A DNA stretch of 40,268 nucleotides from Patescibacteria group bacterium (GTDB lineage: Bacteria; Patescibacteriota; Gracilibacteria; BD1-5; UBA2023): positions 1 to 40,268 of the forward strand of contig JASDUA010000002.1 in the NCBI GenBank assembly GCA_041891375.1. The letters are read 5' to 3'. Shown one piece after another: positions 7,102 to 39,242 of the stretch. The notes under the pieces are model-generated. The model saw nothing but the letters and a program-made list of their open reading frames with translations. It was not told where the DNA came from and made no database searches. How positions within the stretch are numbered: the stretch's first letter is position 1; each line of letters begins with the position of its first letter. The position numbers were made by a program, and so were the translations under genes.

Positions 7102-7108
7102 GGGCGGG

Positions 7109-19706: not shown

Positions 19707-19881
19707 GGTCGGGAAGTTCCGCGTAGTTACTGGGAACCGATTTTAAGGGGTTCCGGCCGAAAATCAATGTTCGTTGCTGATAAGATACCTTATCGGAAAC
19801 GGCTTATTGAATCCGCGAAATTTTGCCATCCCACCTCCAACGGATAGAATCCATAAGTCATATTCATTTGCGGCATCGGCT

Positions 19882-22506: not shown

Positions 22507-23670
22507 CTACTTCCCCTGCCCCTTCGGCAGCGAAAGCTTCAGGAACCGCTTCCCGATCCGGAACCCCTTCCGGGTTTCCGGCGATATCCGCTCCGTCGCG
22601 TACTTCTTCCGGATGCGGAAGGCGTCGAAATGCCCGAAGAGGCCCAGGTACGAATTCACCGAAGCGAGGAACGCCGGCCGGAGGCTTTCGGGCAATCCCT
22701 CCTTTCCGGCCAAGGCGTTCCAGTGCGCCGCGCGCTCCGAGAAATTCCCCTTCGTCCGGTTTCCGAGATAGGTCCGGTAAGGCTTGACGTAGCCCCCGAG
22801 GAACGGGAACCCGTCGCGGACGGAACGGAGCATGATTTTCTTCGGATGGAGCTGGAGCCTGAGGACGTCCCTGAGGAAATCCCGGATCGTCGGAATGCTC
22901 GCTTCGAGCACCGAACGGTCTTCGTGCATCAGGAGGAAGTCGTCCACGTACCGGCCGTAGTGCCGGATTTTCAGCGTCCGCTTCACGAAATCGTCGAGCG
23001 GGTGGAGGTAGAGGTTCGCGAATATCTGGCTCGTAAGGTTTCCGATCGGGAGGCCGACTCCCGTAGGGGAATGGAAGAGGCTCTTCCCTCTCGGAAGGTC
23101 CGCCCAGTCCGAACGGTTTCACCGGATGACGCAGTTCTCCGTCGGGTCGTTGGCCAATATCTTCCGGATGAGGAAGAGAAGCGTCTCGGGATCCGCGCCG
23201 CGGTATTTCCTTTCCACCGTCCGTTCGAGCATCGCCAGGAGTATCCGCCGGTCGATCGACATGAAGAATCCCGATATGTCGAGTTTCAGGACGTGCGCCT
23301 CCTTCGTGAAGGTGTCGGTGCAAGACCTGGCGAAATGTTCCGCGCGACGTATGCCGAACAGCGCGCCCTTCCCCACCCTGCAGGCGTACGAATCGTGGAT
23401 GAAAGTCCGGTCGATCGCCTCGCCGATTTCGCCCACGACGTAGTGGTGCACGACGCGGTCACGGAAGTCTCAGGCGAATATTTCCCTTTTCACCGGCCTG
23501 TCTACTATGAAGGCGACGCACCGGCCGACTTCGTACCGGCGTTCGACGATCTCGTCGTACAGTTGGAACAGCTTGCTCTCGTAGTCCATTTCGAAATCGG
23601 TGGCGTTGCGGGTTTTCCGTTTGTTCTGCCGGCAGTCGTAGTACGCGCGGAAAAGGTCGGCGGCTTCCAT
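22507..23670 (-). CDS. Diversity-generating retroelement reverse transcriptase (387 aa) with two in-frame TGA (23470, 23119)
   Basis: Track pieces 23470-23670, 23119-23451 and 22507-22986 share one frame. Junctions: REIFA-[TGA]-DFRDRVVHH and NCVIR-[TGA]-NRSDWADLP. Motifs: GLPIGNLTSQIFANLYL (DGR-type xGxxxSQ motif), YGRYVDDFLLM (YxDD). TAG stop. Confidence 0.85.
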
Positions 23671-23729: not shown

Positions 23730-23906
23730 GAGGCAGCGGACCGATAACCCGTTCGCCCGGTTATTGTTGTTAGCGGGAATCACTCCGTTAGTAGTCGAGA
23801 GATTCACGTTGTTCCCGTTCGTCCCGGTAGTAGACGCGGCCCAGTAGTTGCCGTTCGTACCCTGGTTATTGAACGCGGCGGTCGAGTTGTTACGGTTGCC
23901 GGCGAG
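23730..23906 (-). repeat. DGR template repeat (TR), 177 nt
   Basis: Aligns without gaps to 24537-24713 and 32739-32915. Asn-rich when translated (NGVIPANNNNRANG; AAC/AAT codons). Lies between avd and the RT. All about 17 differences from VR1 fall at TR positions that are T on the + strand, which is A on the coding strand. Confidence 0.85.
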
Positions 23907-24009: not shown

Positions 24010-24411
24010 TCAGGACTGGGGCTCGCCCGGGCGCTCCGTGGAGTCGCCAGGTTCCGGCCCGCGTGGTCCCGGGAGGGATTTGTCCCAGTGGAACAGTTGC
24101 TTCGAGATGCCTTCGATGTGTTCGTTCAACCGGACGAACTTGTCGACCGCGATGAGCTTGAGGTCCTTCGTGAGCCGGAGGTACAGCCTGACGGTTTCGA
24201 GGCATTCCCTCGCCTCCGTGACGTGTTCCTTCCTCCTGGCCATCGATCCGTTCGCCCGGTACACGGCGCGGATCAGGTCGAGGAGTTCCCTTTTCACGCT
24301 CTCGCCGAGCGTGTACTTGTATTCCCTGGGAAAGGTTTTGACGAAGGCGAAGGCTTCGACGAGGAAGTCGTAGCTTGCCCGGTAGACGGGAAGCCGGTCG
24401 TAGGTGGCCAT
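24010..24411 (-). CDS. avd: DGR accessory variability determinant (Avd; four-helix-bundle / 23S rRNA-intervening-sequence-type protein)
   Basis: Sequence MATYDRLPVYRASYDFLVEAFAFVKTFPREYKYTLGESVKRELLDLIRAVYRAN...RLYLRLTKDLKLI. Position between target and TR is canonical. First stop is TGA at 24010; TAG at 23986 applies if TGA=Gly (+7 aa). Confidence 0.75.
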   Translation of the reverse strand: MATYDRLPVYRASYDFLVEAFAFVKTFPREYKYTLGESVKRELLDLIRAVYRANGSMARRKEHVTEARECLETVRLYLRLTKDLKLIAVDKFVRLNEHIEGISKQLFHWDKSLPGPRGPEPGDSTERPGEPQS

Positions 24412-24527: not shown

Positions 24528-26021
24528 CTAATTCTTGAGGCAGCGGACCGATAACCCGAGCGCCCGGGTATTGTGGTTAGCGGGAACCACTCCGTTAGTA
24601 GTCGAGAGAGTCACGTTGCGCCCGTTCGTCCCGGTAGTAGACGCGGCCCAGTAGCCGCCGAGCGTACCCTGGTTATTGAACGCGGCGGCCGAGGTGTTAC
24701 GGTAGCCGGCGAGCGGCAGGCGGAGCGTGGTCATGAACTTGTTGGCCGTGGTTTCCACGTGCCAGGCGGCGTCGCAAAGGGTTACGTCCGGCGATACGGC
24801 CTTGATGGCGTCGCACCACTCCTTCTGCGTCGGGACGTGGTAGCCGGACTGGCAGGGGCCCTGCATCGCGGCCGGGGATCCGAGCGACGAGTAGGTTCCG
24901 ACGGCGGTTGTCGAACCGGTGCCTCACCAGAGGTTGTCGTCCTGGACCGAGAGCCAGTCATACGGCGCGGTGCCTTTCGTTATGAACCGGGTTTCGGAAG
25001 CCGCCGTGGCGGCGGCCAGCGGTCCGGCGACCGTGGTTCCGGTGGTGACGTCCTCGTTCCTTCCCCACTGGTAATAGGCTCCCATATACGCCTTCTGCGC
25101 TGCCGTCGGACCGCCGGCCGCGGTGGCGTCGGTGAGCGCTACCGACTGTCCGGCGTACGCGGTGCTCGCGCCCACGTTGCAGGCCGCCCAATGCTGGTTC
25201 GATCCGGTGAGGTAAATGTCCGGAGCGTCGCAGCCCGGGTACTGGCTCGCCCCGCCTCCGGAAGAGGCCGAGCTTGAGGAAGACGACCCGGAAGTCCCGG
25301 TCGCGCCGCCGTCGACGAGCGCGCCGGTTCCGGTCGGGGCCTTCACGAGGCCGAGGACGGCTCCCGCGGAAACCTGTGCCGCGGTGGGCGCCGGGAAATT
25401 GCCGGAGACGGCGACGAGGCCTGTGGCCGGAGCCGTGCCGGCCACCTGGAAGAAGGAGGCGGAACGGTTCCTTCCGGAGGCGGTCGGGGCGAGCGCGGCG
25501 TCGACGGCTCAGACGGCGAGCGATTTCGAATCGTACGCGGCGAAAGAGTCCGGAAGGAAGGAGCCCAGCGACAGGAACCCGCCCATGGGCGGACGGCGGG
25601 AGAGCCGGAATTTCTCCGGATTGAGCTTGAGCTTCGTCCAATCCGGATTGCCGGCCGAGTAATTCGTGCCGGCCTGGTTCCAATCACCGCCGGTGAGCGT
25701 CACCGGGGAGCCGTCGACGTACGCCACGGCCGCTCCCGTGAGCGCGGCGGCGGCGTCGTGGACGACGTAGTAGCGCGGCGAGTTGTCGGTGACGGCCGAC
25801 TCGGAAGAAATCGCCGTATATACCGACCGGACGTTGGCTTTCACGGCGGCGTCCTTCGCGTCCTGCGAGTAGCCGGAAAGGGCGAGGAAGCCTATCGTTG
25901 CCAGAATCGCGAGGATCGTGATGACGACGATGAGTTCGGCAAGGGTGAATCAGGAAAGGATCGATGCTTTGGCGGCCTTGGCGGGCGGCCTGGAGGCCGG
26001 CGCCTCGCGTTTCGCGTCCAT
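24528..26021 (-). CDS. Type IV pilin-like protein with C-terminal Fib_succ_major (FISUMP)/C-type-lectin-like domain; DGR target 1 (497 aa, three in-frame TGA)
   Basis: Four track pieces share one frame and are joined by TGA at 25950, 25509 and 24924. N-terminus: MDAKRE...KASILS-[TGA]|FTLAELIVVITILAILATIGFLAL (prepilin G|FTLxE motif). Ser/Gly linker. C-terminal motifs: GYHVPTQKEWCDAI, LPLAGYRN, GGYWAASTTG, LSVRCLKN. TAG stop at 24528. Confidence 0.8.
24537..24713 (-). repeat. DGR variable repeat 1 (VR1), at the 3' end of pilin-like target 1
   Basis: Same length as the TR. Mismatches fall only at TR adenines on the coding strand, e.g. TR ATT/AAC/AAC/AAC versus VR1 GTT/CAC/ACC/CTC. The 3' 21 nt (GGGTTATCGGTCCGCTGCCTC) are identical to the TR. 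Confidence 0.85.
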
Positions 26022-26125
26022 GTTCGGAAAAAAACGGGTTAAAAATCCGTGGAACATCCTAGCCGGAAATGCGCGGGATGCAAGGCGGACCCCGCAGGCA
26101 TTCCCCTTTTCACCAGCGGGAACGC

Positions 26126-26620
26126 TTACGCGGCGACCGCCACCGGCGCGGCGCATCCGCTCGGAAGCCTTATTGACGAAGGTCCGTCCGTACCGTTCCT
26201 CACGGCCGGGAACGTCTTCCGGCCCCTTGAGCCCGCGGCGACGTCGCCGACCCAGCGGTAGGCGTTGGCCCTTTGGTCGTAGAACGCGCCGTGGGCGGAG
26301 TGCCGGAATCAGGAAAACGCCCTGCGGAAAAGGACGCGGTCCTCGTCGGACCGACCGGAGAACGCCACTGCGGCGGCTTCGAGCTCGGCGGCTGCCGGAA
26401 GGCGGAGGCCCGCGGACTGCAGTTCCCGGACCGCGGCGGCATAGGTGAAAAACTGCTCGGGTGCTCCGTCGGGAAGCAGGACCTGCCAGACGTCCCCTCG
26501 GGTGTTCGCGAGGATCGGGCGTCCGAACGCGGAGGATCAGGGAACGGCGGTCCATCCGGACGAATCAATCCGGAAAAGGCGGAATCCGGCGAATGCCGGG
26601 TCTGGTTTCGTTTCTGGCAC
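26126..26620 (-). CDS. DUF1566-like small protein (about 164 aa, GTG start uncertain) with two in-frame TGA (26537, 26309)
   Basis: Not in the track because two TGA split it. Sequence ...FRLFRIDSSGWTAVP-[TGA]-SSAFGRPILANTRGDVWQVLLPDGAPEQFFTYAAAVRELQSAGLRLPAAAELEAA...RRAFS-[TGA]-FRHSAHGAFYDQRANAYRWVGDV..., TAA at 26126. Clear paralogue of 17783-18247. The other two minus frames are Arg/Pro-rich. Confidence 0.5.
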
Positions 26621-26698
26621 GTGGGGTCGCGCTTGAAGGGGTAAGGCGTCCTGATGCTATCCGCGGAACCCTTCGGGTCAAGCCTGGCTTGGTACGGG

Positions 26699-28255
26699 CT
26701 AATCGAGGGCCAGCCCGATCGCCCCCACCATTTCACCGAACGACTCCGGAAATTTCCGCGTTACGGCGCCGGCCAGCGTCTTCAGGAAATCGTCGCGCTC
26801 GAGGCCGAGCTCCTTCCCCGCCGCGTACACCTCTTTGTGCTTGCCCGCCTTCGCTCCCGTATCGAGGGCTTCGGCGACCGTATCGGGATCGGAACCCACT
26901 AATGCGGCGAGGTCGTTGGCGATTTCCTTTCCTTTCCGCATGAGCCACGCTTCGGGCCATACGTCGCCCGGAAGGTAGGCCATCCGCGCTTTCATCCAGT
27001 CGTCGAAATCCTCTTCCGGATTCTCGGCCATCTTGCGGGCGTGGCCGACGTTGTCGCCCTCCTTCTTCCTTTGGTCGCCGTCGAAAACCGCCAGAACCGG
27101 ATGGTCCCCGTCCCGCAGGTACGTCGCGGCGAGCTGTCTGGCGAGGCAGTTCGCCGAGCCGATTTCGGTTACGGTGATCCGCGTCCGCTGTTGGGCCGAC
27201 AGCGCGGCGCAGACGAGCGCTTTGGCCACGTCGTCCTCGACCAGGACCTCGAGCTCCTTGCCGGCGACCCCTCCGAGTTTCGAAAAGGCGAACTCCGATG
27301 AGACCGAATCGAGGATCCTCGTCCGACCGTTGACGGTCTCTACGAAGTACCTGGCGTCGCTCGGGAGGCGCTCGAAGATCTCTTTCGAGTGCGTCGTGCA
27401 AATCACTTGGGCATTGAGCTTCAAGCACGCGTCCTTGAGCTTGTCGACGAACCGCCGCTGGGCTTCGGCATGGAGCCCGAGCTCGATCTCGTCGATGACC
27501 AGCAAGGCTCCCTTTCCGCAGTCGTACAGGACGGAAAAGATCTCGAAGAGGGCGTTCTCCCCCGCTCCCATGTTGAAGCCGGAATACACTGTCTCGCCCA
27601 CCTTCACGATGGGAAGGTTGTACTTCGAATATTCGAGGTACCGGAAACTGTCGTACGTCTTTCCGAGGATGGATCCGACGATGTCCTTAACCTCGTCTTC
27701 CCATCCTTTCTGCACCGCGTCCTTGAACGCTTTTGAGTACGACCGCGACTGGCTCCGCTCGGCGTGCGGGACGATCCGGTCGATTCCGAGGAACGCTACG
27801 TTCCGCCGTACCCGGTCCGCGTAGTCGTTCCATTTGCCGCCCCGCTTCTTCGATCGCTTCTGCCAGCCGACGCCCACGCCGTCCGGGAGGGTGTCGCTCT
27901 TCTTCCACTTGTCGTAGGCGATCCCGTACTTGATTTCGATTCCTTGCGGGGACAGTTCCTCCGGATGCTGGACGAAAAAATCCGAGAACGTGTAGTACGT
28001 CGTCTTCCGCTTGGGCAAGCGGTATCCGTCCCTCCTGTTGTGGTAGGCGCAGCATGCGAGGGCGAGAATGGTGGATTTTCCCGCGCCGTTCTTGCCGGCT
28101 ACGGCGACGATCGGGAAGTTGACCGGGAGGTCGAGCCGCGTCAGGCCACGAAGTTCGCCGGTAACGAGGTTGATGTTCCGAAGGAGCGCTTTGGTGTTGT
28201 CGTTGCAGAACCACTCGCGAAGCTTCTTATCGGTCTTTGTCTCGCTGTATTTCAT
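26699..28255 (-). CDS. OLD-like ABC ATPase with C-terminal Toprim/DUF4435-like domain (518 aa)
   Basis: Motifs: Walker A VAGKNGAGKSTIL, Walker B LLVIDEIELGLHAEAQRRF, CTTHS, then ELEVLVEDDVAKALV and LAVFDGDQRKKEG (Toprim-like E...DxD). TAG stop. No internal TGA. Confidence 0.7.
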   Translation of the reverse strand: MKYSETKTDKKLREWFCNDNTKALLRNINLVTGELRGLTRLDLPVNFPIVAVAGKNGAGKSTILALACCAYHNRRDGYRLPKRKTTYYTFSDFFVQHPEELSPQGIEIKYGIAYDKWKKSDTLPDGVGVGWQKRSKKRGGKWNDYADRVRRNVAFLGIDRIVPHAERSQSRSYSKAFKDAVQKGWEDEVKDIVGSILGKTYDSFRYLEYSKYNLPIVKVGETVYSGFNMGAGENALFEIFSVLYDCGKGALLVIDEIELGLHAEAQRRFVDKLKDACLKLNAQVICTTHSKEIFERLPSDARYFVETVNGRTRILDSVSSEFAFSKLGGVAGKELEVLVEDDVAKALVCAALSAQQRTRITVTEIGSANCLARQLAATYLRDGDHPVLAVFDGDQRKKEGDNVGHARKMAENPEEDFDDWMKARMAYLPGDVWPEAWLMRKGKEIANDLAALVGSDPDTVAEALDTGAKAGKHKEVYAAGKELGLERDDFLKTLAGAVTRKFPESFGEMVGAIGLALD

Positions 28256-28449
28256 ACGCTTGAGCGGTTACGTCCGGAATATTCGTTTGATCTTACCAGG
28301 GTTGGGAAAACCGCCTGGACGACTCGGCTCTCGTGGGGAGGAAACGTCGCAGTTCGCCAAATGGTAAGCACGGAACCGACCCCGTCAAGTTTGGCCGTTT
28401 CCGAATCCGCAATCGTCCCGAGAACGTACCTTTTCGATACGTTCCTCAT
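28252..28449 (-). CDS. Possible 65-aa ORF whose TGA overlaps the ATG of the OLD-like gene (ATGA); low confidence
   Basis: Sequence MRNVSKRYVLGTIADSETAKLDGVGSVLTIWRTATFPPHESRVVQAVFPTLVRSNEYSGRNRSSV. Composition looks like protein, but GC3 is only moderate and the region looks intergenic and carries operator-like repeats. Confidence 0.25.
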   Translation of the reverse strand: MRNVSKRYVLGTIADSETAKLDGVGSVLTIWRTATFPPHESRVVQAVFPTLVRSNEYSGRNRSSV

Positions 28450-28455
28450 ACGTTC
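28422..28455. promoter_or_regulatory. Operator-like inverted plus direct repeat upstream of the OLD-like gene
   Basis: GAACGTA (28422-28428), 9 nt, TACGTTC (28438-28444), 4 nt, TACGTTC (28449-28455). Confidence 0.3.
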
Positions 28456-28462
28456 ACCGGTT

Positions 28463-30124
28463 TTATTCCGTACCTTTACCGGGTATCCACTCCGCGCGCT
28501 CCGGCCACTCGACGCCGAACCGGTCGCAGGCCTTCGCGAACGCCGCGAGCACGTCCTCGGCGTGCGCGGCGAACCGAGCGGTTTCGACGACCATGCCCGC
28601 CCGCTTCGCGGCGCGGCCCGAGGCGCGGACTTCGGATTCGAAGGCGTAAGGGAACGCCTCCGCGAGGGCGGCGGCGGACCGCTCCGCCGCTTTCAGGAGT
28701 CCGGCGGGCGGCTTCCGGTTCCTCGTGGCCATGACCTGGACGAGCTCCGGGACGCCCCCTTCCCCGGGCGCCAGTTCGAAGTGCCCGGCCAGTTCTCCGG
28801 ACGGATGGAACGCCGCGAACACCGCCCGTCTTCCGGCCAGGAGCTCCGGCAGGTACCCGGCCAGGCAGTTCGAAGCCTCGTCGGCCTCGGCGATGAGCCG
28901 GCCAGCGGTGCCTATCCGCCTGGCCTCCCACCCTCCCCCGCAGCCGAGGGCGTCGGGGAACGGCGACGGGATCGGGTCTTCGGGAGGCCAGACTTCCCTC
29001 ACGGCCTCCCGGACGGCCGCGGTTTCCTTGCGCGCCCAAGCGCGGCCCGCGGCCGGAAGGTCGGCCGGGTGGTGCCGGCAGAGGGCCCAGAGGACCGCCC
29101 ACGTTCCCGCGCCGAGACGGACCGTTTCCCCGTGGAACGTCCCGGCGAACGTCCTTCCCCCGACGGCGGGGTGCTTCCCCACCTGCTCGGCGAGGTCGGA
29201 AAGCCAGGCCGTCCCGTGCCGGTCCGGAAGCTCGTACGGGCGGCGGCGGAGCGCCTGCCATACGGCCGCCGAGGCTTCCGCGAGCGCCACGCGCCCTTCA
29301 TGGTCGCCGGCGTCGCGAAGGATGCCGGCCGCCCAGCGTGCCGCCTTCAGGAAGCGGCCGAAGTCGGGGGCGCGGGGCCTCCGTTCCGGCGGTACGAGCG
29401 AGAACGCCGCGGCGTAGAACGCGGGGTCGGTCTCGAAGTCCGCCACGGGATACCCACGGGCGCGCGGATGCCAGGCGCCGACGGCCGCGAGCGACCGGAC
29501 GACGTTGGGCTCCGCCCGGAGCTCCCTGCAGAGCGCGGGCAAGAGTTCCGCCCGCGCGTCGATCGCGGCGAGCACGCGTTCCGCCGGTTCCGGAGTGCCG
29601 GCCGCCAGGCCGGCGCACGTCCAAGGCAGGAGCCAAGGGAAGACGGTGACGGCCTGGACCCTCTCCGGGCGCCCGGAGAGCAGGGCGTACTCCCTCCCGG
29701 TCAGCGGGCGCCCGACCGGGAGCTTCAGGAGGTCCCGATCCAGGGCGCCGAGGAACTCTTCGACGGCTCCCGCGACGCGGGCTGCGGCCGGGTCGGTCCC
29801 GTCCGGACCGCAGGCGGCATAGGCGATCCGCAGGGGCTCGAGGATCGGGTCGAAACCCGAGTAGGGTCCGGCGGCGGCCGCCTCCCTGACCGAGGCGCCG
29901 AGGCTCCCGGCGCCGGGTTTCGGACGGTGGCGCCCGTACGACACGGTTTCGTCGGCGGCATGGAAGAGGAAGGAGGACTCCGCGGCCCCGGGCCCGCTCC
30001 ATTCGACCGTAAGCAGCCGGCCTGGAATCCCGACGGCCCGGAGGACGTCCGCGCCCTCGAGGCTGCGGACCAGGCCGGAAACCTTCCCCGAACGGACGGC
30101 GAGGTACTTGCGGCCCGCGTTCAC
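28463..30124 (-). CDS. 553-aa cytoplasmic protein, C-terminus possibly PcfJ-like
   Basis: GTG start at 30124, preceded by GGGAGGGA. The real frame is the C-terminal 553 aa of the track's 854-aa ORF (the N-terminal 300 aa are an Arg-rich shadow of the vWA gene). The stretch EASNCLAGYLPELLAGRRAVFAAFHPSGELAGHFELAPGEGGVPELVQVMATRNRKPP resembles my recollection of the PcfJ-like domain. TAA stop. Confidence 0.55.
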   Translation of the reverse strand: MNAGRKYLAVRSGKVSGLVRSLEGADVLRAVGIPGRLLTVEWSGPGAAESSFLFHAADETVSYGRHRPKPGAGSLGASVREAAAAGPYSGFDPILEPLRIAYAACGPDGTDPAAARVAGAVEEFLGALDRDLLKLPVGRPLTGREYALLSGRPERVQAVTVFPWLLPWTCAGLAAGTPEPAERVLAAIDARAELLPALCRELRAEPNVVRSLAAVGAWHPRARGYPVADFETDPAFYAAAFSLVPPERRPRAPDFGRFLKAARWAAGILRDAGDHEGRVALAEASAAVWQALRRRPYELPDRHGTAWLSDLAEQVGKHPAVGGRTFAGTFHGETVRLGAGTWAVLWALCRHHPADLPAAGRAWARKETAAVREAVREVWPPEDPIPSPFPDALGCGGGWEARRIGTAGRLIAEADEASNCLAGYLPELLAGRRAVFAAFHPSGELAGHFELAPGEGGVPELVQVMATRNRKPPAGLLKAAERSAAALAEAFPYAFESEVRASGRAAKRAGMVVETARFAAHAEDVLAAFAKACDRFGVEWPERAEWIPGKGTE

Positions 30125-30366
30125 GGCGCGTCCCTCCCGTCCCGGTTGATCGTCGCCCGAACCTTCCCGTCCTTGCCCCGGACGAACTCGGAGCCGGGGG
30201 GAAGCCGGAACAGGAACGCGCGCAGGAGTTCGCCGACGTTGGCCGCCACGTCCGCCAGGAGCACGACGCGGCCTCCACGGCGGTTCCTCCATACGGGCGC
30301 CCGCGTCCCCTTCCGGCACCATCCGACCGGGACGAGACCGATCGCGACCAGCAGGATCCTGAACAT
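30121..30366 (-). CDS. 81-aa single-pass membrane protein ending in a TGA that overlaps the next start (GTGA)
   Basis: Sequence MFRILLVAIGLVPVGWCRKGTRAPVWRNRRGGRVVLLADVAANVGELLRAFLFRLPPGSEFVRGKDGKVRATINRDGRDAP. Very high GC3. If TGA=Gly, it would continue for hundreds of codons in a Ser/Pro/Arg-rich off-frame. Confidence 0.55.
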   Translation of the reverse strand: MFRILLVAIGLVPVGWCRKGTRAPVWRNRRGGRVVLLADVAANVGELLRAFLFRLPPGSEFVRGKDGKVRATINRDGRDAP

Positions 30367-30374
30367 GGCGGCCC

Positions 30375-31031
30375 CTACCGGATCCGGACCGGGTAGCGGC
30401 CGTACTGGACGACGGCGGCCCCGGGAGCGGACGAAAAGTAGCGGGTCCAAAAGGCCTCGACCGCCGCGTAGTCCTTCCCGCCCGCGCCGGCGACGTACAC
30501 CTTCGCGCCGGCGAGCGCCGCGGGGGCCGCGAGGTCCTTCTTCCGTCCCGACGCCAGGTCGAAGCGGCCGGTCTCGAGCATGTCCGAAAGGACCACGAGC
30601 GTCTTCCCCGAGTCCGGGGACTGGGAGAACGCCTGCGACGACGCTTCGACGGCGTCGACGATCCTGGTCGCCTTGTCCGGCGACTTCTCCGCGCGCCCGA
30701 GGATCCCGCCGAGGGCGGCCAGGGCGCCCTCTTCGAACTCCTTCCTCCGCTTCCCGTCTGCGAAGCGCCGGCCGGTCGGCGCGGGAGCTTCGGCGTCGAA
30801 GTCGCGGACCCACGAGGCCCGCTCCTTCCCTCCGAGCGCGGCCACCACCAGGCGGTCCCCCGGACGCACGGCCCGGACGACGCCCTCCACGCTTTCCCGG
30901 TACGCGGCCCGTTCTTCCGCGCCCACGCTCGACGACGCGTCGACGAGCACCACGTACGTGCCGGCCCACGCCGGCGAGGCCAGCGCGAGGCACGCGGCGG
31001 CCGCGCAGGCGGCCATTTCCATTGCATCCAT
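30375..31031 (-). CDS. Secreted von Willebrand factor A (vWA)-like protein, 218 aa
   Basis: Signal peptide MDAMEMAACAAAACLALASPAWAG, MIDAS-like VLVDASSSV (DxSxS), LVVLSDM. SD AGGAG upstream. TAG stop. Confidence 0.7.
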   Translation of the reverse strand: MDAMEMAACAAAACLALASPAWAGTYVVLVDASSSVGAEERAAYRESVEGVVRAVRPGDRLVVAALGGKERASWVRDFDAEAPAPTGRRFADGKRRKEFEEGALAALGGILGRAEKSPDKATRIVDAVEASSQAFSQSPDSGKTLVVLSDMLETGRFDLASGRKKDLAAPAALAGAKVYVAGAGGKDYAAVEAFWTRYFSSAPGAAVVQYGRYPVRIR

Positions 31032-31077
31032 TTCCTTCGGCTCCTATCCGATTACCGTCTTTTCACAATTCGCTATC

Positions 31078-31097
31078 CGTACGTTTCACGTACGTTT
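31078..31097. promoter_or_regulatory. Tandem CGTACGTTT repeat (11-nt period) in the spacer before the vWA gene
   Basis: CGTACGTTT at 31078-31086 and 31089-31097. On the coding strand this reads AAACGTACGtgAAACGTACG, about 50-65 nt upstream of the vWA ATG. Confidence 0.3.
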
Positions 31098-32165
31098 TCC
31101 GTCCGCATTCCAATCCCTCCCGATCTCCCCGACGGCCCTCCGGATATCGCCGGCAGGAGGGTCCGGCGGCGGATCGAGCGGCAGGGGTTCGAAGGCTTCC
31201 TCCCCCACCGCGGAGAGCATGTAGTCCGGCGGCAGGCAGCCGGGCGGGCGGTTGGCGAAGTTGTGGTCCCGGTAGGCGGCGACCATCCCGAGGACGCGGT
31301 GGACCGTTGCCGAAGCTTCGTCCCGCGCTTTCGCCCAGGCTTCCGCCCGACGGGAAGCCAACGCGGCGCGCTTCTTCCAGAGCCGCTCCCGCTCGTCCCG
31401 GAGCCGGTCGCACCGCGCGGCGAGCCTCGAGGCCTCGGGATCGGGATCGGCATTCCATGCGGCGAAAGCCGCCGCCGCCAGGTAGCCGAAGCACTGGACG
31501 GCGAGGAACGCCGCCGAATGCCCCACGAGCTCCCCCGCCCCGTCGGCCGCGAGCTGCACTTCCCGAATGGAGGCGAACCCCCAGGCGAAAGCCGCGACCC
31601 CGACGTTCGCGAAGGCGACGGCCCAGCCCGGCAAGCCGCCGGGACGGCCGGCTCCCCTCTGCCTGGCCCAAGTGCCGGTCGCCTTCGCGACGGCGAAGAG
31701 CGACGCCGCGAGGAAAAACGAGTACCAGAGCTTCTCGTTCAGCAGGAACCGGACGGCCGAGGCGGCGAAGTCGCCGAATCCCCCCTCCCCCGCCGGTTCC
31801 GTCGGGACCGGGCCGGCCATCCCGAAGTAGTCGAGCAACCCGTACGCGAGGGCCCATTCGCCGCAGACCGCGACCGCTGCGAACGCCGCGAAGGCCCATC
31901 CCGGCAACGGCTTGCGGTACCGGCGTCCGCCGCATTCCCGCAGGAACTCGGCCTCCGTCCGCACGAGTTCGTCCGAGGTTTCGCGGAGGGACAGGTCGAG
32001 CCGGTTAATCTCGGCCCGGTCCCGCTTGGCCTCCGCGTTCGCCTTCGAGGCGAGTTCGAAGCGCTCCCGGTTGCCCGGGGCGACGAGCCGGGCGGCGAAG
32101 GGCTCGCGGACCTTCGTTCCCGTGGCCGCCGGGCGGAAGCGCCGGAGTTCGAGCACGTCAGCCAT
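31086..32165 (-). CDS. 359-aa membrane protein: N-terminal coiled coil, about 4 TM helices, C-terminal coiled coil
   Basis: Sequence MADVLELRRF...EAKRDRAEINRLDLSLRETSDELVRTEAEF. Hydrophobic segments: GWAFAAFAAVAVCGEWALAYGLL, LWYSFFLAASLFAVA, GWAVAFANVGVAAFAWGF, AFLAVQCFGYLAAAAFAAW. Then RCDRLRDERERLWKKRAALASRRAEAW. SD AGGGAGG upstream. First stop is TGA at 31086. Confidence 0.65.
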   Translation of the reverse strand: MADVLELRRFRPAATGTKVREPFAARLVAPGNRERFELASKANAEAKRDRAEINRLDLSLRETSDELVRTEAEFLRECGGRRYRKPLPGWAFAAFAAVAVCGEWALAYGLLDYFGMAGPVPTEPAGEGGFGDFAASAVRFLLNEKLWYSFFLAASLFAVAKATGTWARQRGAGRPGGLPGWAVAFANVGVAAFAWGFASIREVQLAADGAGELVGHSAAFLAVQCFGYLAAAAFAAWNADPDPEASRLAARCDRLRDERERLWKKRAALASRRAEAWAKARDEASATVHRVLGMVAAYRDHNFANRPPGCLPPDYMLSAVGEEAFEPLPLDPPPDPPAGDIRRAVGEIGRDWNADGKRT

Positions 32166-32364
32166 TCGCGACCTCCCTTGCCTTCCGTACGCCCGTCTCC
32201 GGCACGGCCGCCGGCGCCGCAGCTTCCGCGGTTCCGGCGTTCCCGTACGTCGCGACCGCGACTCCGTGCCCGCGTGACGGATACCCGTTCCGCCCGTCGC
32301 GCGCCCCGGTCCAACCGGGGTCCGCCGACAGGACCCTCGCCAAGATTTCCCACAGTCCGCCCAT
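32158..32364 (-). CDS. 68-aa protein, first gene of the operon; its TGA stop lies inside the start of the next gene (ATGGCTGA)
   Basis: Sequence MGGLWEILARVLSADPGWTGARDGRNGYPSRGHGVAVATYGNAGTAEAAAPAAVPETGVRKAREVANG. Strong SD GGAAGGAG 7 nt upstream. High GC3. Confidence 0.5.
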   Translation of the reverse strand: MGGLWEILARVLSADPGWTGARDGRNGYPSRGHGVAVATYGNAGTAEAAAPAAVPETGVRKAREVANG

Positions 32365-32594
32365 TTTCGACTCCTTCCCGAACGCTCTCCGAAAAGCCGG
32401 CCCCCTCTCGGGAGTCCCGGCGGCGGAACCGTGGATTTTCGGCCCGCTTGGTTTGAACACTATTCGGACTAAAACCGGAAGTCAACCGAAAGCTATACGG
32501 TTTTTATACGTTAAGCGGTTTTTTGCCGTACCTTTTACGACCGCTAACGATGCGCTTTTGCCCCGGACAAATTTCCCTACGGGATCCGGCCTGC

Positions 32595-32638
32595 GCGGCT
32601 TCCGCGCCCGGCGGACGGGCCGCCTCCGCGGAAGCCGC
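32595..32638. other. 12-bp perfect GC-rich hairpin about 95 nt 3' of the pilin-like target 2 stop
   Basis: GCGGCTTCCGCG (32595-32606), 20-nt loop, CGCGGAAGCCGC (32627-32638). No T-run on either side. Confidence 0.45.
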
Positions 32639-32729
32639 TGCGGTCCTCCCATGGGTGGCGCAGGGCATAAAAAACCGCTCCTCCCGATGATGGGAAGGGC
32701 CGGTTTTCGAGCAAGCATCGGAGCGCTTC

Positions 32730-34178
32730 TTAGTCCCTGAGGCAGCGGACCGATAACCCGTGCGCCCGGTTAGTGTATTTGGCGGGAGACACTCCGTTAG
32801 TAGTCGAGAGATTCACGTAGTACCCGTACGTCCCGGTAGTAGACGCGGCCCAGTAGGAGCCGACCGAACCCTGGAGAGTGAATGCGGCGGTCGAGTTGTT
32901 ACGGTAGCCGGCGAGCGGCAGGCGGAGCGTGGTCATGAATTTGTTGGCGACGGCTTCGGCGTGCCAGTTGGCGTCGCATACCATCGCCGCCCCGCCGTTC
33001 TGCGTCGGGGATACCGCGACGATCGCGTCGCACCATTCCTTGGCCGTGGGCACGTGGTATCCGGCCGCGCAGGGTCCCTGCATCGCGGCCGGGGATCCGA
33101 GCGAGGAGTAGGTTCCGGCGGAAACCGTGGAACCGGTGCCTCCCCAGAGGTTGTCGTCTTGGACGGAGAGCCAGTCGTACGGAGCGGTTCCGTTGGTGAT
33201 GAACCGGGTTTCGGAAGCGGCGGTCGCGGTCGCGAGGGGTCCGGCGACCGTGGCTCCGGTCGTCACGTCGAGGTTCCGTCCCCACTGGTAGTACGCGCCC
33301 ATGTAGGCTTTCTGCGCGGCGGTCGGGCCGCCGGCGGCGGTCGCGTCGGCGAGGGTTACGGACTGTCCGGCGTACGCGGTGCTCGCGCCCACGTTGCAGG
33401 CGGCCCACTTCTGGCCGTTGGAGAGGACGACGTCCGGCGTGTCACAGCCGGGGTAGGCGGCGAACCCCGGGGAAGCGGAGCCGTCGACGAGCGCTCACGT
33501 CAGCGCGCCGGGGAACCCGACGAGTCCGGGGATTCCGCCACTTCCGGCCGGGAAATTACCGGAGACGGTGACGAGACCGGTGGCCGGGGCGGTTCCGGCG
33601 ACCTGAAAGAAGGAGGCCGAACGGTTCCTTCCGGAAGCGGTCGGGGCGAGCGCCGCGTCGACGGCTCAGACGGCGACCGATTTCGGATCGTACGCGGCGA
33701 AAGAGTCCGGAAGGAAGGAGCCCAGCGACAGGAACCCGCCCATGGGCGGACGGCGGGAGAGCCGGAATTTCTCCGGATTGAGCTTGAGCTTCGTCCAATC
33801 CGGATTGCCGGCCGAGTAATTCGTGCCGGCCTGGTTCCAATCACCGCCGGTGAGCGTCACCGGGGAGCCGTCGACGTACGCCACGGCCGCTCCCGTGAGC
33901 GCGGCGGCGGCGTCGTGGACGACGTAGTAGCGCGGCGAGTTGTCGGTGACGGCCGACTCGGAAGAAATCGCCGTATATACCGACCGGACGTTGGCTTTCA
34001 CGGCGGCGTCCTTCGCGTCCTGCGAGTAGCCGGAAAGGGCGAGGAAGCCTATCGTTGCCAGAATCGCGAGGATCGTGATGACGACGATGAGTTCGGCAAG
34101 GGTGAATCAGGAAAGGATCGATGCTTTGGCGGCCTTGGCGGGCGGCCTGGAGGCCGGCGCCTCGCGTTTCGCGTCCAT
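32730..34178 (-). CDS. Type IV pilin-like protein with C-terminal Fib_succ_major/C-type-lectin-like domain; DGR target 2 (482 aa, three in-frame TGA)
   Basis: Pieces 34107-34712 (tail), 33666-34001 and 32730-33392 share one frame. TGA at 34107 (G|FTLAE), 33666 and 33495. The N-terminal about 165 codons are identical to target 1; the C-terminal two thirds diverge (AAGYHVPTAKEWCDAI, LPLAGYRN, GSYWAASTTG, LSVRCLRD). TAA stop. Confidence 0.8.
32739..32915 (-). repeat. DGR variable repeat 2 (VR2), at the 3' end of pilin-like target 2
   Basis: Gap-free 177-nt alignment to the TR. Most mismatches fall at TR adenines on the coding strand, but about 5 do not (e.g. ATT>TCT, GCT>GCC, AAC>AAA). Confidence 0.75.
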
Positions 34179-34282
34179 GTTCGGAAAAAAACGGGTTAAA
34201 AATCCGTGGAACATCCTAGCCGGAAATGCGCGGGATGCAAGGCGGACCCCGCAGGCATTCCCCTTTTCACCAGCGGGAACGC

Positions 34283-34777
34283 TTACGCGGCGACCGCCAC
34301 CGGCGCGGCGCATCCGCTCGGAAGCCTTATTGACGAAGGTCCGTCCGTACCGTTCCTCACGGCCGGGAACGTCTTCCGGCCCCTTGAGCCCGCGGCGACG
34401 TCGCCGACCCAGCGGTAGGCGTTGGCCCTTTGGTCGTAGAACGCGCCGTGGGCGGAGTGCCGGAATCAGGAAAACGCCCTGCGGAAAAGGACGCGGTCCT
34501 CGTCGGACCGACCGGAGAACGCCACTGCGGCGGCTTCGAGCTCGGCGGCTGCCGGAAGGCGGAGGCCCGCGGACTGCAGTTCCCGGACCGCGGCGGCATA
34601 GGTGAAAAACTGCTCGGGTGCTCCGTCGGGAAGCAGGACCTGCCAGACGTCCCCTCGGGTGTTCGCGAGGATCGGGCGTCCGAACGCGGAGGATCAGGGA
34701 ACGGCGGTCCATCCGGACGAATCAATCCGGAAAAGGCGGAATCCGGCGAATGCCGGGTCTGGTTTCGTTTCTGGCAC
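34283..34777 (-). CDS. Second copy of the DUF1566-like small protein (two in-frame TGA at 34694, 34466)
   Basis: Offset of 8157 from 26126-26620, inside the identical repeat. Confidence 0.5.
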
Positions 34778-34855
34778 GTGGGGTCGCGCTTGAAGGGGTA
34801 AGGCGTCCTGATGCTATCCGCGGAACCCTTCGGGTCAAGCCTGGCTTGGTACGGG

Positions 34856-36412
34856 CTAATCGAGGGCCAGCCCGATCGCCCCCACCATTTCACCGAACGA
34901 CTCCGGAAATTTCCGCGTTACGGCGCCGGCCAGCGTCTTCAGGAAATCGTCGCGCTCGAGGCCGAGCTCCTTCCCCGCCGCGTACACCTCTTTGTGCTTG
35001 CCCGCCTTCGCTCCCGTATCGAGGGCTTCGGCGACCGTATCGGGATCGGAACCCACTAATGCGGCGAGGTCGTTGGCGATTTCCTTTCCTTTCCGCATGA
35101 GCCACGCTTCGGGCCATACGTCGCCCGGAAGGTAGGCCATCCGCGCTTTCATCCAGTCGTCGAAATCCTCTTCCGGATTCTCGGCCATCTTGCGGGCGTG
35201 GCCGACGTTGTCGCCCTCCTTCTTCCTTTGGTCGCCGTCGAAAACCGCCAGAACCGGATGGTCCCCGTCCCGCAGGTACGTCGCGGCGAGCTGTCTGGCG
35301 AGGCAGTTCGCCGAGCCGATTTCGGTTACGGTGATCCGCGTCCGCTGTTGGGCCGACAGCGCGGCGCAGACGAGCGCTTTGGCCACGTCGTCCTCGACCA
35401 GGACCTCGAGCTCCTTGCCGGCGACCCCTCCGAGTTTCGAAAAGGCGAACTCCGATGAGACCGAATCGAGGATCCTCGTCCGACCGTTGACGGTCTCTAC
35501 GAAGTACCTGGCGTCGCTCGGGAGGCGCTCGAAGATCTCTTTCGAGTGCGTCGTGCAAATCACTTGGGCATTGAGCTTCAAGCACGCGTCCTTGAGCTTG
35601 TCGACGAACCGCCGCTGGGCTTCGGCATGGAGCCCGAGCTCGATCTCGTCGATGACCAGCAAGGCTCCCTTTCCGCAGTCGTACAGGACGGAAAAGATCT
35701 CGAAGAGGGCGTTCTCCCCCGCTCCCATGTTGAAGCCGGAATACACTGTCTCGCCCACCTTCACGATGGGAAGGTTGTACTTCGAATATTCGAGGTACCG
35801 GAAACTGTCGTACGTCTTTCCGAGGATGGATCCGACGATGTCCTTAACCTCGTCTTCCCATCCTTTCTGCACCGCGTCCTTGAACGCTTTTGAGTACGAC
35901 CGCGACTGGCTCCGCTCGGCGTGCGGGACGATCCGGTCGATTCCGAGGAACGCTACGTTCCGCCGTACCCGGTCCGCGTAGTCGTTCCATTTGCCGCCCC
36001 GCTTCTTCGATCGCTTCTGCCAGCCGACGCCCACGCCGTCCGGGAGGGTGTCGCTCTTCTTCCACTTGTCGTAGGCGATCCCGTACTTGATTTCGATTCC
36101 TTGCGGGGACAGTTCCTCCGGATGCTGGACGAAAAAATCCGAGAACGTGTAGTACGTCGTCTTCCGCTTGGGCAAGCGGTATCCGTCCCTCCTGTTGTGG
36201 TAGGCGCAGCATGCGAGGGCGAGAATGGTGGATTTTCCCGCGCCGTTCTTGCCGGCTACGGCGACGATCGGGAAGTTGACCGGGAGGTCGAGCCGCGTCA
36301 GGCCACGAAGTTCGCCGGTAACGAGGTTGATGTTCCGAAGGAGCGCTTTGGTGTTGTCGTTGCAGAACCACTCGCGAAGCTTCTTATCGGTCTTTGTCTC
36401 GCTGTATTTCAT
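34856..36412 (-). CDS. Second copy of the OLD-like ABC ATPase-Toprim protein
   Basis: The 518-aa translation is identical to 26699-28255. Confidence 0.7.
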   Translation of the reverse strand: MKYSETKTDKKLREWFCNDNTKALLRNINLVTGELRGLTRLDLPVNFPIVAVAGKNGAGKSTILALACCAYHNRRDGYRLPKRKTTYYTFSDFFVQHPEELSPQGIEIKYGIAYDKWKKSDTLPDGVGVGWQKRSKKRGGKWNDYADRVRRNVAFLGIDRIVPHAERSQSRSYSKAFKDAVQKGWEDEVKDIVGSILGKTYDSFRYLEYSKYNLPIVKVGETVYSGFNMGAGENALFEIFSVLYDCGKGALLVIDEIELGLHAEAQRRFVDKLKDACLKLNAQVICTTHSKEIFERLPSDARYFVETVNGRTRILDSVSSEFAFSKLGGVAGKELEVLVEDDVAKALVCAALSAQQRTRITVTEIGSANCLARQLAATYLRDGDHPVLAVFDGDQRKKEGDNVGHARKMAENPEEDFDDWMKARMAYLPGDVWPEAWLMRKGKEIANDLAALVGSDPDTVAEALDTGAKAGKHKEVYAAGKELGLERDDFLKTLAGAVTRKFPESFGEMVGAIGLALD

Positions 36413-36619
36413 ACGCTTGAGCGGTTACGTCCGGAATATTCGTTTGATCTTACCAGGGTTGGGAAAACCGCCTGGACGACTCGGCTCTCGTGGGGAGGAA
36501 ACGTCGCAGTTCGCCAAATGGTAAGCACGGAACCGACCCCGTCAAGTTTGGCCGTTTCCGAATCCGCAATCGTCCCGAGAACGTACCTTTTCGATACGTT
36601 CCTCATACGTTCACCGGTT

Positions 36620-38281
36620 TTATTCCGTACCTTTACCGGGTATCCACTCCGCGCGCTCCGGCCACTCGACGCCGAACCGGTCGCAGGCCTTCGCGAACGC
36701 CGCGAGCACGTCCTCGGCGTGCGCGGCGAACCGAGCGGTTTCGACGACCATGCCCGCCCGCTTCGCGGCGCGGCCCGAGGCGCGGACTTCGGATTCGAAG
36801 GCGTAAGGGAACGCCTCCGCGAGGGCGGCGGCGGACCGCTCCGCCGCTTTCAGGAGTCCGGCGGGCGGCTTCCGGTTCCTCGTGGCCATGACCTGGACGA
36901 GCTCCGGGACGCCCCCTTCCCCGGGCGCCAGTTCGAAGTGCCCGGCCAGTTCTCCGGACGGATGGAACGCCGCGAACACCGCCCGTCTTCCGGCCAGGAG
37001 CTCCGGCAGGTACCCGGCCAGGCAGTTCGAAGCCTCGTCGGCCTCGGCGATGAGCCGGCCAGCGGTGCCTATCCGCCTGGCCTCCCACCCTCCCCCGCAG
37101 CCGAGGGCGTCGGGGAACGGCGACGGGATCGGGTCTTCGGGAGGCCAGACTTCCCTCACGGCCTCCCGGACGGCCGCGGTTTCCTTGCGCGCCCAAGCGC
37201 GGCCCGCGGCCGGAAGGTCGGCCGGGTGGTGCCGGCAGAGGGCCCAGAGGACCGCCCACGTTCCCGCGCCGAGACGGACCGTTTCCCCGTGGAACGTCCC
37301 GGCGAACGTCCTTCCCCCGACGGCGGGGTGCTTCCCCACCTGCTCGGCGAGGTCGGAAAGCCAGGCCGTCCCGTGCCGGTCCGGAAGCTCGTACGGGCGG
37401 CGGCGGAGCGCCTGCCATACGGCCGCCGAGGCTTCCGCGAGCGCCACGCGCCCTTCATGGTCGCCGGCGTCGCGAAGGATGCCGGCCGCCCAGCGTGCCG
37501 CCTTCAGGAAGCGGCCGAAGTCGGGGGCGCGGGGCCTCCGTTCCGGCGGTACGAGCGAGAACGCCGCGGCGTAGAACGCGGGGTCGGTCTCGAAGTCCGC
37601 CACGGGATACCCACGGGCGCGCGGATGCCAGGCGCCGACGGCCGCGAGCGACCGGACGACGTTGGGCTCCGCCCGGAGCTCCCTGCAGAGCGCGGGCAAG
37701 AGTTCCGCCCGCGCGTCGATCGCGGCGAGCACGCGTTCCGCCGGTTCCGGAGTGCCGGCCGCCAGGCCGGCGCACGTCCAAGGCAGGAGCCAAGGGAAGA
37801 CGGTGACGGCCTGGACCCTCTCCGGGCGCCCGGAGAGCAGGGCGTACTCCCTCCCGGTCAGCGGGCGCCCGACCGGGAGCTTCAGGAGGTCCCGATCCAG
37901 GGCGCCGAGGAACTCTTCGACGGCTCCCGCGACGCGGGCTGCGGCCGGGTCGGTCCCGTCCGGACCGCAGGCGGCATAGGCGATCCGCAGGGGCTCGAGG
38001 ATCGGGTCGAAACCCGAGTAGGGTCCGGCGGCGGCCGCCTCCCTGACCGAGGCGCCGAGGCTCCCGGCGCCGGGTTTCGGACGGTGGCGCCCGTACGACA
38101 CGGTTTCGTCGGCGGCATGGAAGAGGAAGGAGGACTCCGCGGCCCCGGGCCCGCTCCATTCGACCGTAAGCAGCCGGCCTGGAATCCCGACGGCCCGGAG
38201 GACGTCCGCGCCCTCGAGGCTGCGGACCAGGCCGGAAACCTTCCCCGAACGGACGGCGAGGTACTTGCGGCCCGCGTTCAC
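36620..38281 (-). CDS. Second copy of the 553-aa possible PcfJ-like protein
   Basis: Translation identical to copy 1 (offset 8157). Confidence 0.55.
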   Translation of the reverse strand: MNAGRKYLAVRSGKVSGLVRSLEGADVLRAVGIPGRLLTVEWSGPGAAESSFLFHAADETVSYGRHRPKPGAGSLGASVREAAAAGPYSGFDPILEPLRIAYAACGPDGTDPAAARVAGAVEEFLGALDRDLLKLPVGRPLTGREYALLSGRPERVQAVTVFPWLLPWTCAGLAAGTPEPAERVLAAIDARAELLPALCRELRAEPNVVRSLAAVGAWHPRARGYPVADFETDPAFYAAAFSLVPPERRPRAPDFGRFLKAARWAAGILRDAGDHEGRVALAEASAAVWQALRRRPYELPDRHGTAWLSDLAEQVGKHPAVGGRTFAGTFHGETVRLGAGTWAVLWALCRHHPADLPAAGRAWARKETAAVREAVREVWPPEDPIPSPFPDALGCGGGWEARRIGTAGRLIAEADEASNCLAGYLPELLAGRRAVFAAFHPSGELAGHFELAPGEGGVPELVQVMATRNRKPPAGLLKAAERSAAALAEAFPYAFESEVRASGRAAKRAGMVVETARFAAHAEDVLAAFAKACDRFGVEWPERAEWIPGKGTE

Positions 38282-38523: not shown

Positions 38524-38531
38524 GGCGGCCC

Positions 38532-39188: not shown

Positions 39189-39242
39189 TTCCTTCGGCTC
39201 CTATCCGATTACCGTCTTTTCACAATTCGCTATCCGTACGTT

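Follow-up and report, generated by a model that had tools for sequence, protein, structure and literature searches.

A plasmid-like element on a Patescibacteria contig links genes that end at UGA with genes that read UGA as glycine

Contig JASDUA010000002.1 of a Patescibacteria group bacterium was analysed in its entirety (the window; 40,268 bp, to whose positions all coordinates refer). It carries a plasmid-like element on which an operon of the minus strand, at 32364-28463, uses TGA as a stop codon, and on which other genes contain TGA codons in frame. The former usage is that of genetic code 11 (UGA is a stop); the latter is that of code 25 (UGA is glycine), which reports by Campbell (2013), Rinke (2013) and Hanke (2014) attribute to Absconditabacteria and the BD1-5 'Gracilibacteria'. 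Related contigs and loci, here L001 to L009, were fetched for comparison; the p553 protein of the operon is 41% identical to that of L001 and 43% identical to that of L002, and L003, from a separate study, is a much closer relative.

The operon and other TGA-terminated genes

The operon begins with orf68 (32158-32364; 68 aa; Shine-Dalgarno (SD) site AAGGAG), whose TGA stop lies inside ATGGCTGA and overlaps the start of memb359 (31086-32165; SD GGAGGT). The latter encodes a 359-aa predicted membrane protein and itself stops at TGA, with the next TAA or TAG 13 codons on. Next come p218 (30375-31031; SD AGGAG; TAG stop), encoding 218 aa with a signal- or lipoprotein-like N-terminus, a DxSxS motif and a weak likeness to von Willebrand factor A (vWA) domains; tm81 (30121-30366), encoding 81 aa with a hydrophobic N-terminus; and p553 (28463-30124; SD GGAGG; GTG start; TAA stop), encoding a distantly PcfJ-like protein of 553 aa. 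The TGA stop of tm81 lies inside GTGA and overlaps the GTG start of p553. Both stop/start overlaps that an earlier, sequence-only reading had pointed out, ATGGCTGA at 32165-32158 (orf68/memb359) and GTGA at 30124-30121 (tm81/p553), are thus present, as are the SD sites that it had listed before orf68, memb359, p218 and p553, which make up 4/5 of the operon's open reading frames (ORFs). A third overlap that it had considered possible, ATGA at 28252-28255, does not hold up, since the 65-aa ORF involved has no coding signal and contains a promoter-like site. The spacer at 28256-28462 is non-coding, with a sigma-70-like promoter for the downstream ATPase gene predicted on the minus strand at 28388-28361 by a promoter scan, and in the 65-aa ORF three nonsynonymous changes and one synonymous change separate the window from L003.

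The five ORFs comprise 1,279 codons, close to the 1,280 estimated beforehand, and none of these is an in-frame TGA, against nine TGAs off frame; the in-frame UGA at glycine positions that characterises code-25 genes is therefore absent from the operon. In a frame plot of GC content at third codon positions (GC3) and in a codon log-odds model of the minus strand, the reading frame switches exactly at the overlap TGAs, and coding potential past the operon's TGA stops falls from about +0.3 to -0.4 or -0.5 per codon (from +0.35 to -0.37 for tm81). Read under code 25, tm81 would run through p553 in a different frame and gain a 402-codon tail (C-terminus at the UGA stop, ...INRDGRDAP; read-through sequence, ...DAPGTRAASTSPSVR...), orf68 would gain 50 and memb359 13; the expectation that the upstream ORFs run on for hundreds of codons was therefore right for tm81 and wrong for the other two.

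For tm81 there is comparative evidence that UGA terminates the gene. Its product is 56-63% identical to h87 of L002 and h79 of L001 (E 1e-31 to 1e-33), both of which end in a TGA that overlaps the p553 start, and it is better conserved than p553. A homologue in L008 (47% identity) has no overlap with p553. Because tm81 is conserved, and because its TGA overlaps the p553 start in the window as well as in L001 and L002, hence in three lineages, we regard it as a real gene terminated by UGA. It is doubtful that orf68 is a real gene: its GC3 is 0.80-0.84 in frame and its TGA stop is kept in L003, but its codon score is weak (0.18 per codon) and no homologue was found in L002. The memb359 protein is 57% identical to a 400-aa protein of L002.

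Searches of Pfam and PADLOC gave no match for orf68, memb359, tm81 or p553, and the names that the sequence-only reading had given to two of the proteins could be kept only in part. For p553 the PcfJ label has indirect support, from its relatives: four are close and 41 were found by profile search, of which the remote ones carry the Pfam domain PcfJ (PF14284), and residues 396-482 of p553, which has no direct Pfam match itself, align with a PcfJ-domain protein by profile comparison (hhalign probability 92.8%, E 4e-7). The vWA label of p218 is weaker. The protein contains DASSS, a motif of the DxSxS metal ion-dependent adhesion site type, and matches Pfam VWA at E=0.08; its L002 orthologue (58% identity) matches VWA_2 at E=1e-4, with 23.3 bits against a cut-off of 27. 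A search of the PDB with the p218 sequence was empty, and the AlphaFold models were poor (predicted local distance difference test score 55 for p553 and 43 for p218), unfit for fold searching. The public NCBI annotation (P0002) of p553 covers its C-terminal 327 aa only (a 327-aa protein with locus tag QMC36_00245 matches at 100% identity), and a spurious ORF of 1,414 aa runs antisense to the operon (27764-32008, plus strand).

p553 homologues are found on the plasmid-like contigs L001, L002 and L008. In L001 and L002 the module adjoins genes for Rep3, ParA, a relaxase, MobC/NikA, ArdC and RadC, and so is linked to a plasmid or conjugative backbone; the family thereby resembles the PcfJ-like proteins of conjugative plasmids in its neighbours as well as in its C-terminal alignment. 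It differs from them in the N-terminal ~390 residues of p553 and in the partners tm81, p218 and memb359, which are undescribed. As a conserved module, the operon is part of the backbone of a small family of elements that resemble plasmids or integrative and conjugative elements (ICEs).

The window has further backbone genes in ArdC, RadC, SRAP and an integrase, and has neither rep nor relaxase in its 40 kb. On the plus strand, SRAP (12116-12760) matches 203 of 214 profile positions and stops at TGA, where code 25 would add 23 codons. ArdC (12858-13724, plus strand; SD AAGGAG) stops at a TGA 18 residues after the end of its Pfam domain, and code 25 would add 315 codons; RadC (13741-14220, plus strand), also with an SD site, stops at a TGA two residues after the end of its Pfam domain, and code 25 would add 168 codons (C-terminus, ...SMAEIGMI; read-through sequence, ...SMAEIGMIGPLGVR...). 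The coding signal of tm81, memb359, orf68, ArdC, RadC and SRAP ends at TGA; in a purely code-25 gene set, UGA would never be a terminator. The operon had been presented as an exception in a code-25 genome, and this view had to be given up: most of the contig consists of TGA-free genes, to which some 7,565 of the roughly 9,600 annotated codons belong (no in-frame TGA against 156 off frame), and a TGA stop is needed by ArdC and RadC as well.

Cargo, defence genes and contig layout

In-frame TGA is found in six cargo genes: secreted509, FISUMP-small2, the reverse transcriptase (RT) gene of a diversity-generating retroelement (DGR), pilinA, small1 and, counted without its redundant part, pilinB. 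Together these hold 18 in-frame TGAs in 2,029 codons, or 8.5% of glycine codons; all six stop at TAA or TAG and none (0/6) has an SD site. On the minus strand, small1 (26126-26620; 164 aa) has two in-frame TGAs, both kept in L003, and a promoter-like site at 26681-26654, and pilinA (24528-26021), with a type IV pilin-like N-terminus and a Fib_succ_major domain (Pfam), has three; these counts and the lack of SD sites in both genes are as they had been described from the sequence alone. The pilinA paralogue pilinB (32730-34178, minus strand) also has three, and an intrinsic terminator lies behind it at 32698-32680. The RT gene (22507-23670, minus strand; Pfam RVT_1) has two, secreted509 (15314-16843, minus strand), which encodes a signal peptide, has seven, and FISUMP-small2 (17783-18247, plus strand) has two.

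Several comparisons show that these TGAs stand for glycine. A TGA of pilinA falls on the glycine of the prepilin motif G|FTLAEL, and TGAs of the two pilins lie opposite GGA or GGC in the paralogue (TGA366 of pilinA opposite GGA). Between the window and L003, secreted509 shows a swap of GGG and TGA, and 3/4 of the TGA changes in the cargo comparisons involve glycine codons, the remaining one being TGC. The coding score of the pilin-type genes remains positive past each in-frame TGA, and the predicted secreted509 peptide across a sense TGA, read as glycine, is TVSAGTFPTNGYNR. In-frame UGA where homologues have glycine is thus found in pilinA and pilinB, RT, secreted509, small1 and small2. A homologue search with secreted509 returned a single match, a distantly related protein of 809 aa that carries PD40 (WD40-like beta-propeller) repeats, and by this sequence likeness secreted509 may be a TolB-like propeller.

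The DGR consists of the RT, Avd (24010-24411, minus strand; Pfam bAvd; TGA, then seven codons to the next stop), a template repeat (TR) at ~23730-23906 on the minus strand, and variable repeats (VRs) in its two targets, at ~24537-24713 in pilinA and ~32739-32915 in pilinB. It is intact, as the TR/VR mismatches in both pilins all fall at TR adenines. The closest homologues of the RT are from Candidatus Gracilibacteria (56-58% identity, same target-Avd-RT order). Chromosomal loci of Gracilibacteria (L004-L006) have TGA at 0.46-1.1% per codon, stops of TAA or TAG only, and an SD site on 1/38 genes. The cargo therefore resembles the code 25 of Absconditabacteria and BD1-5 'Gracilibacteria' in its share of TGA among glycine codons, its TAA/TAG stops, its lack of SD sites, its DGR synteny and its nearest RT relatives; it differs in a GC content of 0.60-0.68, against 0.21-0.53 in reported code-25 genomes, and the contig as a whole differs in that most genes have no sense TGA and several require a TGA stop. 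The neighbouring gene for a tyrosine-recombinase-like integrase (18282-19409, minus strand) ends in TGA, four codons and a further stop. It contains an in-frame TAG at 19071-19073 where L003 has TCA (serine), and since both halves have a ratio of nonsynonymous to synonymous divergence (dN/dS) of ~0.1 against L003, the gene is either a very recent pseudogene or affected by a sequencing error.

A defence island at 23-11907 encodes GajA and GajB (Gabija), type III Res and Mod, and a DrmD-like SNF2 helicase (PADLOC), with neither SD sites nor in-frame TGA. To these are added a candidate defence ATPase of family PDC-S06 (AAA_13; 19882-22473, plus strand; TGA-free; TAA stop) and, between the operon and small1, ATPase518 (26699-28255, minus strand; AAA_21/AAA_15; PADLOC candidate defence family HEC-04), which has no SD site, no in-frame TGA and a TAG stop. 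The latter lies 78 bp from small1; the proposal that genes requiring a TGA stop lie about 80 bp from genes with TGA as glycine therefore stands as to linkage and not as to distance. The defence genes, including PDC-S06 and the HEC-04-like ATPase, comprise 5,252 codons with no in-frame TGA (129 off frame), all lack SD sites and stop at TAA, at TAG, or at TGA with TAA or TAG directly after, as at the ends of Mod (7109-7114) and SNF2 (9058-9063). With no in-frame TGA and with such stops, the defence genes and ATPase518 can be read identically in both codes. GajA is 69% identical to GajA of enterobacterial plasmids, and ArdC is 48% identical to a standard-code plasmid relative.

From TGA to the next stop there are 0 codons in Mod and SNF2, 4 in the integrase, 7 in Avd and 13 in memb359, against 402 in tm81, 315 in ArdC and 168 in RadC. 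Under a whole-window null, which is dominated by coding DNA, the median read-through is 165 codons and P(0)=0.005, so that an immediate backup stop has P ~0.005 per gene; MobC of L001 has one likewise. The defence and backbone genes alone are 'bilingual' in the sense of having no in-frame TGA anywhere; the window as a whole is not, given the 18 TGAs in six cargo genes.

The 6.6-kb repeat reported earlier is exact and measures 6,582 bp: positions 25530-32111, which include small1, are identical to 33687-40268 in direct orientation, with an offset of 8,157 bp, and the second copy is truncated by the contig end at the point matching 32111. As this copy is cut where the contig stops, and no more of the contig lies outside the window, the layout is compatible with a tandem duplication, with a circle of 8,157 bp sharing sequence with a larger replicon, and with an assembly-graph loop. 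GC content is 0.55-0.76 per 1-kb window across the contig. A tRNA scan found no tRNA gene on the window, L001, L002 or L003, and an Rfam scan of the window gave no match. The palindrome CGTACG is over-represented about 4-fold in the window (51 sites, where shuffled sequences have 12.8 +/- 3.4); each gene class shows a 3- to 6-fold enrichment, which L001 and L002 share and which is absent from L009 and L004. This excess may follow from codon usage or be a signature related to methylation or restriction.

Conservation, selection and composition

The mixture of gene classes recurs in the relatives. In L001 the backbone genes (ParA, Rep3, ArdC, RadC, tm81 and p553) mostly have SD sites, 7/11 are TGA-terminated, and there is no in-frame TGA, while the cargo is SD-negative and has TGA at conserved glycine positions, such as the GNKgVV motif of a Band_7 protein. 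L002 has the full set of orthologues, with identities of 57% for memb359, 58% for p218, 63% for tm81 and 43% for p553. The p553 orthologues (41-43% identity) are all TGA-free, with ~2,200 codons in which no TGA stands in frame, and are mostly TGA-terminated. At L001 6820-8970, Rep3 and ArdC lie in one frame, separated by TGA and 60 nt that contain no TAA or TAG; in a code-25 cell a Rep3-ArdC fusion of >870 residues would result.

L003 is 98% identical to the window over 32677-26086, a stretch that takes in the operon, the ATPase gene and small1 with its in-frame TGAs, and continues into the integrase/small2/secreted509 region at ~90% identity, lacking the DGR and PDC-S06. Divergence from L003 is mosaic: synonymous divergence (dS) is 0.01-0.06 in the module 26086-32677 and 0.09-0.49 at 15876-19806. 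Since the module of small1, ATPase and operon is 98% identical between flanks of ~90%, it was exchanged recently, and it is the same module that forms the duplicated unit. Two further sequences were set aside. L007, a 2-kb ENA contig of 1.2x coverage, joins the DGR TR to the region upstream of p553 through a short shared ACCGGGACGG k-mer (positions 1-90); this assembly chimera shows both parts to be present in that sample and was used for the p553 stop (TGA) only. L009, with a remote 807-aa relative, was left out for its differing codon usage. The p553 family had no match among JGI metagenome contigs, in IMG/VR or in PLSDB.

Backbone and cargo are both under purifying selection. Against L003, dN/dS is 0.14 for secreted509 (324 codons, dS 0.28), with no frameshift and no TAA or TAG, and 0.07-0.11 for the integrase; for the operon it is 0.30 (p553), 0.19 (p218), 0.47 (memb359) and 0.58 (orf68). 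tm81 differs from L003 by two changes, both synonymous; the dN/dS of its read-through frame is 2.9. We conclude that selection keeps in-frame TGA out of the backbone, because turnover between TGA and GGN is visible in the cargo at dS ~0.3 and yet none has appeared in the ~2,200 p553 orthologue codons. A general shortage of TGA or GGA was rejected as the cause, as off-frame TGAs are common and scaling by GGA predicts ~33 in-frame TGAs where 0 were seen.

The comparison of codon usage and tetranucleotides that the sequence-only reading had proposed gave a divided answer. Synonymous codon usage is the same across the four gene classes (r 0.96-0.98); a preference of CTC far over CTG and of GTC over GTG is found in L001 and L002 too, and that of CTC over CTG also in a Gracilibacteria chromosome locus. 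The tetranucleotide match is good between cargo and defence genes (r 0.71) and weaker between the backbone operon and the rest (r 0.29-0.47).

One element and two meanings of UGA

Genes that depend on UGA as a stop and genes that use UGA as glycine are physically linked on one conserved element, and selection acts on both. The proposed linkage is thereby borne out by the conservation of tm81, by the dN/dS values and by independent assemblies. Host alternation is what we infer from this: our tentative preference, held with somewhat less than even confidence, is that the element family circulates across the boundary between codes 11 and 25 in or around Patescibacteria. Of the explanations offered at the outset, an element that shuttles between codes fits best. 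Patescibacteria lineages use translation tables 4, 11 and 25, and code boundaries run between closely related lineages.

Under such circulation, the element would move between cells of similar composition in which UGA is a stop or glycine; candidates are Patescibacteria of related lineages, or an epibiont together with its partner. The backbone operon would be built for standard-code translation, with SD-led starts and coupling through the UGA stop/start overlaps; such translational coupling needs a release factor that reads UGA. Repeated selection in cells where UGA terminates would keep the backbone free of in-frame TGA and retain its TGA stops, the cargo (code 25, no SD sites; the DGR with its two pilin targets and the secreted proteins) would be selected where UGA is glycine, and the defence genes would be correct under either code. 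In a code-25 cell, read-through would add 13 residues to memb359 and 50 to orf68 and an out-of-frame tail of 402 residues to tm81, and p553 would presumably initiate from its own SD site.

The closest precedent, by analogy, is found in phages whose predicted hosts are Gracilibacteria and Absconditabacteria; their genes are free of in-frame TGA and have other stops placed behind TGA, a gene design that the authors considered a way to work in hosts of either code (Liu, Jaffe, Chen, Bor, Banfield 2023, mBio; PMC10746230). Like these code-11-compatible phages, the element is mobile and tied to hosts in which UGA is glycine, and the defence genes of the window match their design (5,252 codons with no TGA; TGA-TAA/TAG ends of Mod and SNF2). 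The element differs in being plasmid-like or ICE-like and no phage, in not being uniformly 'bilingual', and in joining code-25-only genes to TGA-stop genes that have no nearby backup (tm81, ArdC, RadC), conserved stop/start overlaps included. What is new is this combination of code-25-only genes and UGA-stop genes lacking a backup on one non-phage element. Stop-codon-recoded phages were reportedly described by Ivanova et al. in 2014. Those with an early/late partition of genes (Borges et al., bioRxiv 10.1101/2021.08.26.457843) resemble the window in that the recoded stop is in frame in one subset of genes and is absent, or a stop, in another. They differ in reading TAG as glutamine or TGA as tryptophan, where the window has TGA as glycine, and in having standard-code hosts and, usually, suppressor tRNAs or release factors of their own; on the window, an incomplete contig, neither a tRNA nor phage genes (Pfam, PADLOC) nor an IMG/VR relative was found, and the split is between backbone and cargo, not early and late.

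Several points weigh against circulation between codes. Host alternation is read from contigs of the element, and carrier cells that use UGA as a stop are hypothetical. With its GC above the reported range, the cargo would call for a code-25 host from a high-GC lineage that is new to the record. If the element replicated or was transferred in a code-25 cell, aberrant proteins would result, given the long read-through of tm81, ArdC and RadC, which are not 'bilingual' in their stops. The family is small, with four to five members known, and binning is contradictory, the element being placed in Patescibacteria by NCBI and in Planctomycetia in the study of L003. Finally, the operon is unlike the rest of the contig in GC content (0.71-0.74), SD use and tetranucleotides, which a recent one-way import would explain as well.

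In such an import, a standard-code backbone would have entered, fairly recently, a strict code-25 host of Patescibacteria type that has no release factor 2 (RF2), and gained native cargo there, its read-through tails being tolerated until mutation fixes them. This history, close to the earlier suggestion of a recent, unadapted cassette from the host of an epibiont, is unlikely, though it deserves serious weight. It is kept alive by the operon, which has the highest GC, the poorest tetranucleotide match to the cargo (r 0.29) and, along with only ArdC and RadC on the contig, SD sites; by the module 26086-32677, duplicated and far closer to L003 than its flanks, and hence moved recently; by the shortness of most extensions (0, 0, 4, 7, 13, 23 and 50 codons); and by the standard-code plasmid relatives of GajA and ArdC. 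It is weakened by an operon codon usage that is indistinguishable from that of the cargo, by purifying selection on the operon, and by the same mixed state in two lineages whose p553 proteins are only 41% identical. A recent arrival also fits poorly with TGA-free p553 orthologues, despite TGA-GGN turnover in the cargo, and with a tm81/p553 overlap that is conserved although read-through there adds a junk tail of 402 to 883 codons.

It is improbable that a single high-GC host of Patescibacteria type reads UGA both as glycine and as a stop. RF2 and tRNA-Gly(UCA) would have to coexist or be switched, as in an extant intermediate of reassignment or a regulated switch, and the SD-led backbone might terminate at UGA where the SD-less cargo decodes it, by analogy with the early/late split of recoded phages. 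Dual decoding would account for both classes being on one molecule under purifying selection and with shared codon usage, and the TGA class tracks the presence or absence of SD sites perfectly in the window and L001; the host would be an atypical lineage with a GC beyond the known code-25 range. However, no tRNA was found on the window, L001, L002 or L003 and no Rfam element on the window, and the seven TGAs of secreted509 would be very costly under release-factor competition. A comparison of the sequence context of sense and stop TGAs gave no usable rule separating them, which leaves the earlier suggestion of a context-dependent UGA with no support from that side. To our knowledge, a double reading of UGA, both as glycine and as stop, has no bacterial precedent.

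A standard-code host in which the TGA-containing genes are dead passengers from a Gracilibacterium would suit the contig codons, most of which are compatible with the standard code, the binning of L003 as Planctomycetia and the high GC, but it is very unlikely: secreted509 is under purifying selection in an intact frame (324 codons; dN/dS 0.14, dS 0.28), TGA-GGN swaps act as synonymous changes, the cargo matches the defence genes in codon usage and tetranucleotides, and the TR/VR pairs of the DGR are intact. Least credible of all is an assembly chimera of code-25 and standard-code organisms, or the mis-assembly considered at the outset, since L003, from a different study, spans the junction of operon, ATPase and small1, L001 carries the same mixture, codon usage is uniform and CGTACG is enriched in every class, even though the contig ends inside an exact repeat and the low-coverage relative L007 is visibly chimeric.

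Changes of the genetic code are often seen as a firewall that keeps out horizontally transferred genes. The mobile element described here has a set of genes that works only with UGA as a stop and a set that works only with UGA as glycine, both under selection, in a pattern that recurs in diverged relatives. Mixed-code contigs of this kind defeat gene callers that assume a single code, as with p553, which was called as a 327-aa fragment, and they confuse binning, as in the assignment of the same element to Patescibacteria and to Planctomycetia. If shuttling is true, the element is an example of how a plasmid gets across a code boundary and of the cost: its defence load is bilingual, its backbone monolingual and its cargo in the local dialect. 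If there is no shuttling, either large read-through products have to be tolerated by the host or its decoding of UGA has to be ambiguous. Either alternative bears on the evolution of stop-codon reassignment.

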